Shown here piece by piece: positions 2,996 to 57,334 of a DNA stretch of 64,000 bases; position 1 is the stretch's first letter, and each line of letters starts with the position of its first letter. The notes beneath the pieces were generated by a model, which saw only the letters and a program-made list of their open reading frames with translations, did not search any database and had not been told where the DNA came from. Made by a program: the position numbers and the translations under genes. Source of the stretch: Yuukianura sp. NJ FZ-2021 (lineage: Eukaryota); the NCBI GenBank assembly GCA_046563655.1, contig CM102286.1, positions 14,012,001 to 14,076,000 on the forward strand, read 5' to 3'.

Positions 2996-3508
2996 ATGGA
3001 GTCTGCCCTTGAATCCTACCGAAGGAAGAAGCGAGTAGAGACACTGAAAACGAACATAAAAGAACGAGTGACAGGGTTGTTCCGAACGTCGTGGGACTCT
3101 GTAACGGGATATCTTACCAATGCCGTACTTCCGGAAATCCACCAACCAACAAGTACCGACACTTTGGATACTAATGCAACCGAGGATAGAGATGAAGCAG
3201 ACCCAGGAGTTGATGAAGACGACAATCCAGAAGAGACAACAGTGACTCCAGTGCGGACGATTAGTAAAGTGGAGGTGATCCTGAAAGTGGTACTATGGAT
3301 CCTCCTGTACATCGGATTTCTCAAGATTGGATTCGGTGCAATCTTCTTCATCTTGTCAGCATTCTGGCTCATTTGGACCAATCTTAGAAGTGGTCCTAGG
3401 AAGCCTAACGAGCCCAGTGCCTATTCAGTATTCAATCCAAACTGTGAAGCACTCGATGGACAACTAACAGCTGAGAAGTTGGAAAAGCAGCTTCTGTTTC
3501 AAAACTAA
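2996..3508 (+). CDS. SAYSD1: SAYSvFN-domain protein 1
   Basis: A hydrophobic hairpin is followed by PSAYSVFNPNCEALDGQLTAEKLEKQL. Single coding exon, ATG at 2996. Confidence 0.92.
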   Translation: MESALESYRRKKRVETLKTNIKERVTGLFRTSWDSVTGYLTNAVLPEIHQPTSTDTLDTNATEDRDEADPGVDEDDNPEETTVTPVRTISKVEVILKVVLWILLYIGFLKIGFGAIFFILSAFWLIWTNLRSGPRKPNEPSAYSVFNPNCEALDGQLTAEKLEKQLLFQN

Positions 3509-3744
3509 CGTTGATCAGCTTATGTACTCTACAGGGAAAAGAGGTTAACACGAAACATTAATAATCGCGAAAAATATTTTGGTTATATTTTTCTAAATAA
3601 AGAAATATAAACTCTGAATTCAGTAAAATAAGTTTGAATTAAGGTGAAGATGAGTCGTAAAACTTATGTCAATTTAACAACGTAACCTCGATTGTCTGTT
3701 GTGACAAGATCAGATCTGTGTTTTCACCTTAAGTTCGGAGGTTG

Positions 3745-4670
3745 TCAGCGGTGCTCGGAGTTTCCCCGGATCCGCATTGCCAAGATGACATCCTTCGGCA
3801 TAATGGTCACCCTCTTGGCATGTATGGAACACAAGTTCACGTCCTCGAACATGTTGACTAAATATGCCTCACTTGCTTCCTAAAGTGATCGAATAACAAT
3901 TTTATATCGATATAGAATGGGTCCTTACTCCTTATCATAAAAACCAACATTATTTAGCTTTGATTAGTTACGAACCTGCAGACATTCCAGAGCCAACGGA
4001 TTGATCATGTAGTCAGACTTATATTTTTGCATAATTTCTCTGACTACACGAGCAAATGGCTTCTTGGGCATGAGGAGCTCGTGTGTGCTTTGGTACTTCT
4101 TAATCTCTTTTAGTACCAAAGTCCCTGGCTTATTAAACCTGAAATAACAATTTCAACTTAATGTAGCCACCGCAAGAGATATTCTTAAAATCAATACTGC
4201 TTTTGTTAGTAAGTCAAGGTCATTGCCTTACTTCCGACCAAGCCTGCGTGCTCTGGCGATTCGCTCTTCTAATGTTGATGGGGGAGTGGCCTGTTGTCTC
4301 TGGCTACTATTGCTCCTCTTTGCGGCCTCAACGGACTGCGTGGTCTCGGCTGAGGCATTGGTGGTGGAGGTGCAGGCGGCACTGGAACATCGTCCCCTTG
4401 TCTTGGTTGAGTCCTGGACTTTGGTCCAGGTCGTCGGGAAAGTGGTCTGGAGCTTGACGGTGTCGGAGGAGTGGAAACATTTCGTCTGGGTCTCGGAGGT
4501 GGAGTTACGACCGTCTCAGCTTCGGTCGAAGAGCTTTCTGAATCTTCAGACCCAGAAGTCGGTGGAATTGAAAGTGGGCGCTCTATATATGTCCGACTAT
4601 TCGTTGATTTCCTTGCAGTTTGCAGCAAGGTACTCCTTCTGAAATGTTGTTCCTTATTAATCCTGGACAT
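3745..4670 (-). CDS. Divergent histone H3 variant (CenH3/CENP-A-like) with ~145-aa tail; frame break in exon 1
   Basis: Exons are 4670-4232, 4138-3976 and 3879-3745. Histone fold: [91 protein letters not shown]. The tail contains QTARKST. The tail ORF and the fold are out of frame by one base. Confidence 0.85.
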
Positions 4671-5617
4671 CTTATCCTCGGGAGCGGGTCTTACTAGAAC
4701 GAAACGATAAAAAAGAATGACAATTAGCACTGACCCATACTGGAACTAACGTTAAATTCAAATTACAACAATTATGATGAAACCTGTAATATTTGAACTT
4801 ACGCTGTCGAATGTCGATGGCGGAGACAAAATGTTTCAGGGAAGGGATTACGTGAAGGTTACAGTTCAAACTTCACCTTCTTGTCTATTTGATGGAATCT
4901 CGTGTTTTGATTTTACAAAACAAATGCAAACAAAAAACACAAAATCGTGCGAATAAGGATTAGCTATAGGCGTTGTAGCCACAAAGTGGAGGACTTCGCT
5001 AATTTTAAGTGGCTACAATGGCTAGCTCCACCTAGGTGGCAACGTAATAACCGTTTTAACTTAAACTAAACATTATCTAAAGTGTCAACATAAATTATCA
5101 TGGAAAGCATATCTACTAAAAAGAGGAGTTTTGCGGATACAATGTGCGGCTACAATGATGTTCCTGAAACGTTAGTTCAACCTAAAAAGTAAACGAACGA
5201 GGAAAATTTATTAATTTTATTTCAAGTTCAAAATCGCCGCCAATAAGAAATCCCTCTTTATCGTCTGTTACTTTCTTATGAGTATGAAACCAAATTCTTT
5301 CTAAAATATTTACTTTTTAATCAAATTAAAATCTACATTGACCTTATTAAGTTTTACACAAGAAGGAACAAGGAAAAATTTTATGTAAATCATAGTGTCA
5401 GAACCCTGGGAAAATCTGGAGCACCTTCCACTGCATGCAGATTTTAGCATCAAAACATAATACACTGTTTAACAGTATGTCCTAAAAACCAACTTCCGAA
5501 ATCCAACCGCAAAAATTTCATAATGAAAAATGCTGTACTACTTTCCATAAAATTCTCATTTTTGAATCCACGCAGTGTTAAAATACAAAAGTTAAAATTT
5601 TTGAAACATTTCTAAAA

Positions 5618-8128
5618 ATGTTGTACAGTTGTACAATTTTAAACGCAATTTCGCCAGTAATTGTCTTTGTCTTGATCTCTACAGTAAAAGTCGTCAAAAG
5701 TCAAAGGCCTGAAAGTAAGAAATCGATAATTTGAAAAAGAATTCAGTTTTTCAGAAATTGAAATTTTTTTTTCAAATTTTCTTTTTCAAATCAGGACCAA
5801 ATGCTCCTCCTAGGATACATCGAATAACAAAAGATGTTGCTGGAAATAGAACAGAACTGTTTTGCCTCTCTACTGGACAAAACCTGCATTTCACATGGGA
5901 GAAGGTCGGAGTCACTTTGCCCAATTGGGAGGCCAGTTAAAGAAAAAGTCAAAAGGTCAATGAACCTTCGACCTTCTGAGTGTTGATCTGTCGTTTTTTG
6001 ACTTCCAGGCGCAGTTTGGTGTTTCAGTTGAAGAATCCACTGGAATCTTAACAATTCACAGCACAGATTCATCTCACTTAGGACTTTATAGATGTCATGC
6101 TGCCAATGCCTTTGGATCAGACTCCATGACCTATGACCTCATGCCACCGCCTCCACCGCCTTCACCGCCTCCACCACCTCCACCGCCTAAACAAGAAGAT
6201 ACTGCCGGTATAATTGGTGGAATTGCGGCAACTATCGTCGTTGTCACACTTTTGCTCGTTTGGATCTGCATGGAGTTCTTCCGAAAAGCTAGAGTAATTA
6301 ACACTTTTTAATGAAAGCTCAATGGGAGCAAGCCATTGTTTCGAAAACATTGTCCCGAATGCAAATTGTTTCGAAACAAATTGTTTAGGGTTTAAGGCTT
6401 AGATTAGGTTAATTTGGATTAGATTAAGGCTAGATTTAGATTTAGGTTTAGACATAAAAATAAGCCTTTCGAAACAATTCAATTCGAAACATTTCTATTC
6501 GAAACAATGGCCTAGCACCACTAAAATTAATCAACTTAATTAATTAACTTTTTGATCTAATTTGAATAGAATGGCCTGACGAAAGAAGAAATTCAATTGT
6601 TTCGGTATGGTAATCCAGATTTTTCGAGAGGAACGAACACTTATGCCCATGAAAACGTCGATGCCATGCCGTTTAATCACGACAAATTTGAAATCAAAAG
6701 AGAAAATTTGCACGTTGGTGAGATTTTCATAATTTAACAAAATTCCTATTATTGATTGGAGATTGGCAGAATCATGAAGTCGTGATTTTGAGGTCATTGA
6801 CCTGAACTTTCTTTTTTTGGGGCAATGTTAGACAAATTGCAAGTTTTGGGGGAGGGGCAATATGGGCGGGTGTTGATGGGGCATTTCAAAGGAGTGAAAG
6901 TTGCAGTGAAAACGGTGAAACCAGGCGTGGACAAAGCGTATCTCAAGGCGTTACTTGGAGAGGTCAAGGTCATGGGTCACATTGGGGAACATCCTAACGT
7001 TATCAAGTTCATGGGAGCATGCTCACAGTTTCTTAGAAATGGTAAAATTTCATGAAATTCATAAAATTTCTGAAATTTTGATTCTAGAATTCATAATTTT
7101 TAAATTTTTGTAATTTTTTGTGTAGGTGAGCTGTATGTTGTTTTGGAAATTTGCGACCTGGGCAGTCTGGAGTCAATTTTAAGAAAATGCACTTCATTTT
7201 TAAACGAATTTGATTCAGCGGGAAACTTGCTTGAGGGGTACTTCAAAAAATTCAAAATTTTGAAGATAAATTTTGAAAATGGCAAATTTTGAAAAGTTGT
7301 TGTTTTCTTTTAGAAATGGTACTTACGAGAACAAAGTGGCCGTAAGCACTGCTGTTTCAATTTCAGAACAATATTCAAATGTAGAGCCGAATCCTGCCGA
7401 AACTACGCTTTCGACTAGAATGATTTTGAACTGGGCTATTGAAGTAGCCAGGGCCATGGACTTTCTAGCATCAAAAAAAGTTTGTACTTTCAAATTTTCA
7501 AAATTTTTGAAACATTTTGAACTGAAATTTTCATTTCTTATTCAAAAGGTTATTCATGGAGACTTGGCTGCACGGAATGTGTTGATCACTAGAGATCGAA
7601 TTGCAAAAATTACGGATTTCGGACTTTCCCGAAAGCTCTATGACTATTCTAACTATGTCAAGAAAAATCAGGTTTTAGCACAAAAATTTGCACTTTAGGA
7701 GCAAAAATTTAGACAAAAATTTTTTAATGAAATTTTTCGAAAAATTTTCAGGAACCACTTCCATGGCGTTGGATGGCCATTGAATCACTACGTGAGCTGT
7801 CTTTTTCGCCACAAAGTGACATTTGGTCTTACGGTGTCACCGTGTGGGAAATGTTTTCATTTGGAGATGTTCCGTATCCAGGACTGTCTTGGGACAACGA
7901 TTTCATCAAATGGCTTGAAAACAACTTTAGACTTCAAAAACCAAAATTTGCCACAGATGAAATGTATACGTACTCTATTTTTCTGAAATTCAAAATTTGA
8001 AATTTTGATTTTGCAATTTCAGTTACTGGAACCTCCTTCTTGAGTGCTGGAGAATCAATCCCACCGAGCGACCAACTTTTCCTGCCATTATTGCTTACCT
8101 AGAGCACGTCTTGGCCAAAAAAGCTTAA
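5618..8128 (+). CDS. PVR/VEGFR-type receptor tyrosine kinase with one Ig domain and polyproline stalk
   Basis: Signal-peptide exon at 5618, Ig motifs ([15 protein letters not shown]), [36 protein letters not shown], and kinase motifs [42 protein letters not shown]. Stop TAA at 8126-8128. Confidence 0.9.
6325..6519. mobile_element. MITE-like element in RTK intron with internal TTAGG/TTAGA repeats
   Basis: Inverted termini GCCATTGTTTCGAA (6332) and TTCGAAACAATGGC (to 6511), sub-terminal TTCGAAACA repeats, and a central degenerate TTAGG/TTAGA tract. Confidence 0.6.
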
Positions 8129-52930: not shown

Positions 52931-54659
52931 TAGATAGTTAGTAATTCAATTTGTCATGATGCATCGCTTGATCGGAAGTGTTTAAATTTTTGAACAGCAC
53001 AGAGCCTTACCAATATGTCGACGGACGGCCCATAACACGGGAGGCGTAGTGGGGTTCTGTCCAGAAGATTGATTCGGTTGAGCCAGTTTTGCTTTTTATT
53101 GAATCTGAAATAATCAAAAATTCATTCCAACCAAATTAATTTTCGGACGAGACAAGTTCCAGGATTTTTGGACTACTCTAGACTACCGGTAAATCCGGAA
53201 AGAGCATTACTGTGTCATTGTCAGACTTGTGACAAGATAATACGGAGATTTGAGATTGCTTCATCGATCGATACCAAAAGCCGTACAGATAGTCTGCACC
53301 GGCGAAACAAAAAATTTGCGTGCGTATCTCCGAATAACAAAAATGTATGTTTAGCAAACATAATTTTTTCTAACCTGAAAATATATACAGTGGCAATCCA
53401 CTATACTATTGTAATTCTGTTTGAGCTGTGTGTCTGTATGTCCCGTTTCGTCAATGTCATCATCAGTTAAATTGAGCACAACAAAACTGTCAGTGACAAC
53501 ACCAAATAACTACTGCATTTTCTTGATTTCATTAAATTCGTGTCAAGTGTCTGTCAACTGACAAAACCATGGGACAGATGACACTTTTTATGACACTGAT
53601 AAATTATTCAATGCAGTGAACCATAAATCCAGGTCTCAGCTTTCAATTAAATTAGCCTTGAAATTCAGTAATCTGCGACCAACAAAGTGTTACCACTACG
53701 CCACGGCCCTCAGTCACTGTTAAGCTTAGATTAATACGAATTTAAAAAAAAACGCTCGTAACATGCATGCCCGCCCGTGACGCAACATTACTACTGCGGG
53801 GGAGGGGTTTCACCCAAAATCATAAATAAAATCAAATGAACATTGTAAATTAACCATAGTTAGCATGATTTATAACACATGAGTGTGCAGTTGAGCTTAC
53901 CAAGGCAAAAGATCAATGAACCGAAACAAATGTAAACTGGACGGAACCGATGATACGTTTCTTGGACGAATCGACGAAGTCTGGACACTGTTGGTGGCAC
54001 CGATGGGCACAGTAATTAATGGCAAGAGGTGTTACATTTGTGAATTATTGAAACCAAACATAAGATGTAAGCGGTTTAATAGTGGGATCAATCAGTTAAT
54101 CAAATCAATCAAATCAAATGGAGTGGCAAGTTTTGTTAATAAAGTGACATAATCAACCAGGAGGAAAACCAATGACAAAATCAGCACAGTAGTGTTTAGT
54201 ACAATTTGCGTTTGCAAGTGTGATGCACTAATTGTAAAGGAGTAGTATTAGGTTAACTAACTTATATAGTACTGGACAAACCCAAATTAAATAACACTCT
54301 TAATTAGTCGAAGTGTTGCTATAAAGTCCTTATCACCGAACACTCCACCACTTAAGTGGATTCCACTTCCTTTGGCACCCTCTTTTCACATTTTTTTCCT
54401 CTTGCATCTTGTCTGGTCCGTATATTTACAAACTCAGTTTTTGAATTTTCCCACCAACAGTCTCAAACGCGCGCCAACTTTCTAATACTTGGTGACAATG
54501 AAGCAACTATGCAAATGGCGGGGGAAAAAAAAATTTTTTTGTTTAACTATTTCTGCGAATACTGTTTACTGTATAATACCTGTTGTGCAGTGTGAACGGC
54601 GGCACGTTTGAAAATGTTTAAGATAACATGTCTACACGGTAACATTTTTAAAGGCACTG

Positions 54660-54970
54660 ACGTAAACTCCTTACAATTTACGGACGTAAACTTTACGAAC
54701 GTAAACGTAAATAAAACGTAAGCGAGGTCACATGATTCTCCGACATTTTACCAACGTTGTGTAAACGTAATCACGTAAACTCCTTACAATTTACGGACTT
54801 AAACTTTACGAATGCAAACGTAAATAAAACGTAAGCGAGGTCACATGATTCTTCGACATTTTTCTTGTTTAGCAAACGTTGAGTAAAGGTAGCGAAGTAA
54901 AAGTTAAAACTTGTGGACACAAATTTTACGGAAGTAAAACGTTACTGAAACGTAAACAAACGTCACATCT
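54660..54970. repeat. 113-bp tandem duplication built from ACGTAAA motifs
   Basis: Units at 54660 and 54773 are near-identical, with a degenerate continuation. Confidence 0.85.
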
Positions 54971-55232: not shown

Positions 55233-57334
55233 TTAAGCTCCGGACAGAAGCTTGTCAATGGCGGCCTTGCTGGCAACATACACTGACTCTTGATCCTTGC
55301 TGGCATCGACGTGCGTGCACTTGTCTCCGTAGTGCTTCACAACCTCGGCCGAGTGGGCGTGGTAGGCAGCAAGTCGCTTGTCAATGGTCGCCTCGTTGTC
55401 GTCAGAGTGGGCATGAGCTGCCAATAGACGTTCCTTGCGGACATTGTCGGGGCAATGGTAGTACAGGATCAGCTTAGGGTTGCCAAACTGTCAACAACAA
55501 ACACAACAAGCAAGTATAATAAGTTATTAAGTTTTTTTTTTCAAGTGTTTTGTAAAGTAGTGCCAACTTTTAGATTTGATCTTGACTGACCTTGGCCTCA
55601 AAAGCATCTGCTTGTGGAACATCACGCGGGTATCCAACGACGAGGAATCCCTTCACATTGTCGGCGTGCTTGAGCAAGTAGTCCTCGATGACAGAGAGAA
55701 CGATGTCTTGGGACACGAGTTGACTAAATAACATTAATTACTATTAATTAACATTAATTAATTGCAAAGTTAATTAACTTTTAGGATTAATTGAGTAACT
55801 AATTGATTACCCAGCAGTCATGGCATCCTGAATGGCCTTGGCCTGGGGAGCATTGGCAGCCACCGCAGCTCGGAGAAGTCCGCCAGCGTTGACATTGGTA
55901 AAGTTGTATTCTTTTTCAAGACGAAGACACACCGTGGCCTTTCCAGATCCTGGTCCGCCCAAAACCAAGATGATTGGGTGGTTGGCAATCTAAAATTAAA
56001 AGAAGAAAAGCATCAAATCAATGTCACTTTTTATCACAACGATCTGCATCGTCACTTCATTTCCGTCGAAACACATCACTCTATGTGTCTTTTCCAGCCA
56101 TTTTGTTTCATTCCAAAAAGAAAAAAAAAGTGGCAGTATGCCATGAAATTTTTAGACAATTCAGAAAAAGCGATACTTCTAACTTGACTTGTACTAAATC
56201 AGCGTTTTAGTAGAAACCAGACTCATAAAATTTCCTGTTTTTGGCTAACATCAAACATATGTGGCACATTTTTCAAAAAAACAAAACAATAATTTCAATT
56301 TGCGAAGTGACACTTAACCGTGATTGCGAGAATTTGGCCAAAGTGCCAAAAAATTGTTTCGAATTCTAAAAACAGACACTACTAGAAGGGTGTGAAAAAA
56401 AAAATTTAAAAAAAAAATCTTTTTTTTTAAACGAAGCATGGAATGCCGTGTCGAGATGAAGTTCGAATGTTGAACAGATGAACGCCATTCGGCATTTTAT
56501 TTTTAAAAAAAGTTACTTTTTTGGCATACATTTACTTCTGGCGCTTTTGTCGGGTGCTCAAAAAACCGATTTTAATCGACCGAAAATGTTTTCTTTTTCT
56601 TCAAATAAGTTTTCCGAAATTTTCTAAATTTAGAATTAGAAACGAAACTTTATCTTGCGGGAGAACAAATAACTTTGAGAGACAGGCACTTAGGCCTAGA
56701 AACAACATTTTCAATGCTAATCGAAAAACAGTGGCGTTTTACATTTCCGCTCAATTTCCGAAATCCATTTTCAGAAAAACGAATGTTTTCCAAAACAAAA
56801 AAGAAAGAACCAGGACTCGAACGGAAAGCATCAAAATCGATTTCCAAGAAAATTGAAAAGCTAAAATTCGTTTTTTTCCATCACATTTCACTGTAATTGA
56901 CATAAGAAGTTGCGTGTTCAAATAAACTTTTGTTCAAAAACAAGCAACTGCGAAAAAAAAACCAATAAGGTTAATCGATTAATCGAACCAATCAAAAACC
57001 AATTTCTTTGGTAATTTCGTAAACAAATTAATTAGGAAAACTTCAGAAACTTTAATGTACAGTGCAGTTAAACCGTACAAAAAAAATGAGAAAGTAATTG
57101 CAAAAACTAAAATTAAAGTCAAAATTAACTTCGTAAAAATTTTTTTTGCATTAAATTCCTTCCGAATTTTGCTTAATAGTGAAGCATCCTCTCAAGCGTT
57201 CCCGGCTCAAGTAGATTCTAACGCTTTCGCCACAGTTTTCAATTTCAAATGTTTTGAAAACTGAGCAATTATATGAGTTGATTGTTGAATTAATTTAAGT
57301 TGAACTAAGAATCACTTACCTTCTCGTTGACCAT
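55233..57334 (-). CDS. Adenylate kinase 1 / UMP-CMP kinase-like protein with degenerate catalytic residues
   Basis: MVNEK|IANHPIILVLGGPGSGKAT, AGGLLR, G|QLV, FLVVGYPR, ERLLAAHAHSDDNEATIDKRL. Four exons. Confidence 0.9.

Follow-up and report, generated by a model that had tools for sequence, protein, structure and literature searches.

Does the unusual H3-related gene at positions 3745-4670 of a 64,000-nucleotide stretch of Yuukianura sp. NJ FZ-2021 (contig CM102286.1; hereafter the window) encode a centromeric histone (CenH3) or some other variant of H3? A CenH3 is defined by function, namely by its localization to the centromere and the seeding of the kinetochore (Talbert 2012, PMC3380720). 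By sequence, it is recognized by a longer loop 1 together with the loss of Q, F, and T at positions 69, 85, and 108, Met counted (Grzan 2020, PMC7598501), and the third diagnostic position is printed as 118 in Drinnenberg 2014 (PMC4359364). The literature used for this comparison includes the Jaron 2022 preprint. The original prediction had left the choice between an atypical CenH3 and a lineage-specific H3 variant. This pair of readings is still the right one, but the combination of features is less singular than had been supposed.

Gene structure, reading frame, and genomic neighbourhood

The gene lies on the minus strand and runs from an ATG at 4670 to a TGA at 3747-3745 in three coding exons. 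Exon 1 (4232-4670) contains the ATG and a Pro/Arg/Ser-rich tail of 146 residues; exon 2 (3976-4138) encodes alpha-N, alpha-1, loop 1, and the first part of alpha-2; and exon 3 (3745-3879) encodes the remainder of alpha-2, loop 2, alpha-3, and a polar C-terminus followed by the stop codon. The two coding introns comprise 93 nt (4139-4231, phase 2, directly ahead of the histone fold) and 96 nt (3880-3975, phase 0, behind Q93), and the untranslated regions are interrupted as well: an intron of 109 nt (4694-4802) separates the start codon from a 5' untranslated exon at 4803-4900, which runs past 4900, and an intron of 199 nt (3529-3727) begins 17 nt past the stop codon. One X3 contig skips 4231-4139, 3975-3880, and 3727-3529, a second X3 contig skips 4802-4694 (joint 4693/4803, GT..AG, entered as 'not known' between), and all of these introns are bounded by GT..AG on the minus strand. 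Since X3, although catalogued as 'DNA?', contains these four spliced joints and its cover is empty within two intron bins, it behaves as RNA, and the gene is therefore transcribed and spliced. Replication-coupled H3 genes, unlike this gene, typically have no introns. The last exon in the X3 assembly (3326-3528) overlaps in antisense the 3' end of a convergent SAYSvFN-domain (SAYSD1-like) gene at 2996-3508 on the plus strand; the spliced contig extends about 180 nt into the coding end of this neighbour, which may reflect overlapping convergent transcripts or a merged contig.

In the window as written, the frame of the ATG ends at codon 134 (TAG at 4271-4269) and the histone fold lies in a different frame, a frameshift that the original prediction did not mention. 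The contigs of X1, X2, and X3 (three of four runs, all three from one sample) have one additional base between 4314 and 4315 at full depth, and with this base the frame is open over 245 amino acids. For X5, which represents another organism, the base behind 4314 is not among the indels listed, and the X5 contig has four gaps there. Most likely, the base was lost from the window by a mistake of the assembly within a short run of G. The assembly may have been made from the sample of X1-X3 itself, in which case the deletion would be a consensus error and the three runs would give no independent support. A cryptic intron or a ribosomal frameshift joining the two frames of exon 1 was dropped as an explanation, because the reads contain the missing base. 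In the sample of X1-X3, the gene is intact, spliced, and transcribed, and the false frameshift of the assembly is corrected.

Additional copies were seen in the same runs. A contig of X1 and X3 matches only 53 nt of exon 2 (3996-4048), and as the sequence to either side is unrelated, it is a copy of a fragment that lies at another place in the genome. X1-X3 also contain a second, more divergent form of the tail exon, which matches 4465-4692 with 26 differences over 143 nt, loose ends, and a skip of 61 nt. The SAYSvFN gene likewise has a second form there, in agreement with X5, and both second forms represent either a divergent haplotype or a related species that was part of the sample.

The SAYSvFN neighbour led to an orthologue. 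Among 80 loci obtained in a scan with the SAYSvFN protein, many of them short or from other taxa, an H3-type neighbour was seen only in L001, where the two genes are likewise convergent and the next gene of the window is matched too; a SAYSvFN protein search gave 27 matches, none named as springtail. The L001 protein has 213 residues, both coding introns in the same phases, A68, I84, an H3-length loop, and a Pro-rich tail whose motif, QVAVKST, agrees with H3 in 5/7 positions and has lost the arginine. Across 95 codons the two proteins are 68% identical, with a saturated pS of 0.91 and a dN of about 0.25; to judge from its codons, this comparison shows purifying selection on the gene. Within the window gene itself, the four coding variants among the 40 variants listed are all synonymous. 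L001 has one additional alpha-2 residue directly ahead of position 107 (5727-5593), which is either real or a contig error, and a short H3 fragment with a stop (2283-2366) about 2.4 kb from its SAYSvFN gene. On the other side of the window gene, 5964-8000 contains a receptor tyrosine kinase-like gene with an Ig-like end, a poly-Pro linker, a transmembrane segment, and kinase exons, and L001 has a matching gene on the same side. Far from these, 55233-55989 on the minus strand contains what we take to be an intron-split adenylate/UMP-CMP-kinase-like gene (P-loop GGPGSGKAT).

Upstream of the histone gene, a CDE/CHR-like element lies at 5227-5241 on the minus strand, 557 nt from the ATG and about 300 nt past the RNA-covered part. 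The pattern GGCGG-N4-TTTGAA has two exact matches in the window with 0.04 expected, a figure to be read with the pattern having been chosen after the site was seen; the second match (54598-54612) is adjacent to a tandem duplication at about 54650-54880, where no cell-cycle gene is obvious, and the upstream site has no counterpart in L001. As mouse Cenpa is expressed in G2/M under CDE/CHR-type regulation (PMC5393061, PMC4176359), the element gives a weak hint that the window gene might be expressed in G2/M.

Histone fold, loop 1, and N-terminal tail

Both fold exons score above the cut-off of Pfam PF00125, and 57 of 93 fold residues (61%) are identical to H3, with the H3 part of stored protein P0008 as the reference. 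The residues of the H3-H3 and H3-H4 interfaces are intact (C110, H113, R116, D123, L126, A127, and I130), and with this H3-type fold the protein belongs to the H3 family. It is not an H3.3: the identity is 61%, L-A-L-E stands at 87-90, and a K4, K27, or K36 context is absent. Positions 87-90 carry signatures in H3.1 and H3.3, and the window protein keeps neither.

The codons confirm what had been read at the equivalents of Q68, F84, and T107, as they specify A68 (4053-4051), I84 (4005-4003), and V107 (3840-3838); all three diagnostic residues are thus replaced, and T118 is retained. The differences from H3 are concentrated in alpha-N, loop 1, and the beginning of alpha-2, and exon 2 also carries P63, M75, M83, L89, and E90. 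Loop 1 has the length of that of H3, since exon 2 aligns with PDB H3 chains without gaps across query positions 3-54 (five alignments) and the span from E73 to Q93 comprises 21 residues, as in H3. The canonical loop length of the original prediction holds up, and the longer loop 1 of the CenH3 criteria is absent. The 60 best PDB matches of exon 2 are all H3, with CENP-A in none; the first atlas match is a cluster automatically named centromeric protein A (score 0.91), which we treat as a lead only, and a word-index search of exon 2 against longer proteins gave three candidates, none of them significant. The C-terminus is polar and contains no hydrophobic residue.

The tail, for which about 145 Pro/Arg/Ser-rich residues with an ARKS motif had been proposed, has 146 residues (19% P, 16% R, 15% S), among them 24 R and 3 K, and five S/T-P sites. 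Its residues 17-23 (QTARKST, 4602-4622) are identical to H3 residues 5-11 in all seven positions and form a K9/S10-like site, a match equalled by none of 2000 shuffles of the tail. No second, K27-like motif is present in the tail. With 146 Arg-rich residues that have only this seven-residue motif in common with H3, the tail is divergent in the manner of a CenH3.

Relatives in springtails and decapods and comparison with known CenH3s

The top single-domain matches, among the best 150 of 3376, were two proteins of Allacma fusca (CAG7785831.1 and CAG7660262.1), and a search with an Allacma protein added one of Folsomia candida (XP_021943707.1, annotated as 'histone H3.3A') and proteins from soil; Folsomia thus has at least one and Allacma at least two such proteins. 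It is these relatives that mark the animal of the window as a probable springtail. The three named proteins resemble the window protein in the long tail, the H3-length loop, P63, and the loss of T107, at a fold identity of 54-64%, and the Allacma pair also shares a V/T-A-R/K-K-S-T-like tail motif with it. They differ in keeping Q68 in all three cases and F84 in two. No function is recorded for them in the literature searched. When these three, the window protein, L001, and three proteins assigned by tail motifs are taken as a springtail-type set (n=8, the truncated P0113 being excluded), an H3-length loop, P63, and the loss of T107 are found in 8/8, Q68 is kept in 6/8, and an aromatic residue at 84 in 5/8. 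Because most of the set keeps these two residues, A68 and I84 may be late acquisitions and not inherited from an arthropod CenH3. The C-termini are of two kinds, either IRG with polar residues or a final Tyr behind it (window, L001, P0022, P0168), or IGG with hydrophobic residues behind it (P0020, P0170, P0046, P0171), and Allacma has one protein of each kind.

Long-tailed proteins with the same short loop were also found in mud crab and kuruma shrimp (P0100 and P0029; S68, I84, and A107); a search for crustacean CENH3 literature gave nothing relevant among the first 20 of 1575 matches. Of the 227 stored proteins, the 72 or 73 with a unique and complete fold, or an 18-row subset, were used for the trees (93-96 columns); no verified CenH3 is among the rows, the insect CenH3s having been compared by eye outside the trees. 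Neither the 73-row nor the 18-row tree resolves the place of the window protein among the groups, and of three groupings examined by AU tests none could be rejected (p 0.45, 0.15, and 0.10). Among the stored proteins, P0172, P0174, and P0074 have an H3 fold fused to a C-terminal domain, annotated as PF02902 (Ulp1-type peptidase) in P0172 and P0174, and P0025, P0035, P0037, and P0039, which are H3 fragments with a long tail, have two H3-like motifs in this tail, keep Q68 and F84, and have an intron behind Q93; they represent another H3-derived variant family.

For insects, supplement 3 of Drinnenberg 2014 (PMC4359364) provides 13 CenH3s, 11 of them complete, that were assigned by sequence and tree and not all by cytology. 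Compared by eye, loop 1 equals that of H3 in one of the 11 (Cyrtepistomus), is longer by one residue in seven, and by two, four, and six residues in one each. RKS is found within the first ten residues in 7/11. A short loop and a tail K-S motif are therefore not foreign to hexapod CenH3s. P63 is common to the window protein and all 13. Like the window protein, the insect CenH3s (Tribolium cCENH3; Acheta, Ephemera, Cyrtepistomus) have replaced Q68, F84, and T107, have a hydrophobic residue at 75, and are about 50-60% identical to H3 in the fold; Acheta has an identical ALECLQ stretch, and Ephemera has the same I84 and V107. They differ from it by a longer loop 1 in 10/11 and by shorter tails, whereas the window protein stands apart by its full seven-residue H3 tail match and its polar C-terminus. 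Human CENP-A is comparable in fold identity to H3 (62%) and has Arg for Lys in its tail; it is targeted to centromeres by the region of alpha-N, loop 1, and the start of alpha-2, and its extreme C-terminus is read by CENP-C (PMC7333888). The CenH3 of Dictyostelium (H3v1) has no extended loop 1 and yet is centromeric (Dubin 2010, PMC2995078), and a short loop is therefore compatible with CenH3 function. This protein shares with the window protein a very long unique tail, but it comes from an unrelated lineage and has 619 amino acids. The short loop is neither peculiar to the window gene nor does it exclude a CenH3. The novelty implied for it is largely lost, as it is common to L001, all three named springtail relatives, the two decapod proteins, Dictyostelium CenH3, and 1/11 insect CenH3s.

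Centromeric histone or another H3 variant

On balance, the comparisons incline us to the reading that the gene encodes a springtail-type centromeric histone of the CenH3 class, probably one of two or more paralogues. Because loop 1 is not extended, we have not filed the gene as a CenH3 member. In favour of a CenH3 are the replacement of all three diagnostic residues, a fold identity to H3 like that of CENP-A, the Arg-rich tail, P63 and the other residues in common with insect CenH3s, the absence of the H3.1 and H3.3 signatures, the introns, and the conservation in L001. The unextended loop 1, the polar C-terminus, the retention of Q68 and an aromatic residue at 84 in most springtail-type proteins, and the best PDB matches, all of which are H3, speak against it. 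The reading of the CENP-A C-terminus by CENP-C needs hydrophobic residues. Drosophila Cid, which presumably has a long loop 1, is unlike the window protein in this respect.

If the protein is a centromeric histone, the kept interface residues suggest that it would pair with H4 and enter the octamer via an unchanged four-helix bundle. Loop 1 and alpha-2, the centromere-targeting region, are changed in sequence and not in length, and could present a separate surface to a chaperone or the kinetochore. R83 and K56 are DNA-contact residues in H3, and their loss would be expected to loosen the contacts with DNA. The long Arg/Pro tail might recruit loading or kinetochore factors, under the control of phosphorylation of the ARKS site and of the five S/T-P sites.

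The alternative with a substantial, though smaller, chance of being right is a non-centromeric, lineage-specific H3 variant of the germline, sperm, or early embryo that derives from H3/H3.3 or from a duplicate of CenH3. Such a variant would form loosely wrapped nucleosomes that lack K4, K27, K36, and K56 and keep a K9/S10 switch on which HP1-type readers and Aurora kinase would act. However, the replacement of all three diagnostic residues and the match of P63 and L89/E90 to insect CenH3s argue against it, as does the decay of the QTARKST motif in L001. The intron site does not discriminate, because it is also present in P0055, a fragment with a longer loop. It is improbable that the ancestral arthropod CenH3 disappeared in springtails and a centromeric histone was built anew from H3/H3.3, with the family representing this replacement at various stages of divergence. 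The gradient of H3 identity from 74% (Allacma P0022) to 55% (P0020) and the remnants of the H3 tail would agree with such a history, as would the finding that no long-loop H3 is named as springtail among 11 matches and 30 proteins looked up; this absence means little, however, with searches that were word-limited or covered the best 150 of 3376, the decapod proteins of the same build fit plain inheritance, and the springtail set is neither established nor rejected as monophyletic (AU p 0.15). A frameshifted and decaying or unexpressed copy, raised with the original prediction and suggested by the window's frameshift and early stop, is excluded by the restored 245-aa frame and the splicing and is contradicted by the base at full depth in three runs and the purifying selection seen with L001, so that this very improbable reading is refuted for the sample of X1-X3 and would come down to a rare null allele carried by the individual that was assembled.

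A wider picture can be drawn, which we consider rather doubtful: springtails may have a family of H3 variants, old and expanded, with short loops, long tails, and a K9/S10 remnant, in which at least two subfamilies (IRG-polar and IGG-aromatic) divide the work, for example between mitotic and gametic centromeres, or which replaced the ancestral CenH3 from H3. If this were true, the paralogues would be candidates for marking which chromosomes are kept or lost in globular springtails, whose males eliminate one chromosome set. A link of the window gene to paternal genome elimination was set aside, as it derives from the two copies of Allacma and is unsupported for the window organism.

A study of springtail CenH3 was not found in the literature searched; subscription journals and preprint supplements, which lay outside the search, may hold one. 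In the telomere-to-telomere paper on Folsomia, repeats are used to predict seven centromeres per haplotype, and CENH3 is not mentioned (PMC13194869). For follow-up, the interest seems to lie in an apparent springtail paralogue family rather than in a new kind of protein. The gene and its relatives are concrete targets for antibodies and RNAi in a hexapod outgroup to the insects, in which CenH3 has been lost repeatedly, and a rule based on loop 1 would miss or misname such proteins, as exemplified by the Folsomia protein annotated as H3.3A. In Drosophila virilis, Cid1 and Cid5 are long-lived CenH3 paralogues with divided roles (Kursel 2021, PMC8200288), and if the springtail paralogues are specialized, they would represent a second arthropod case beside the Drosophila Cid paralogues.
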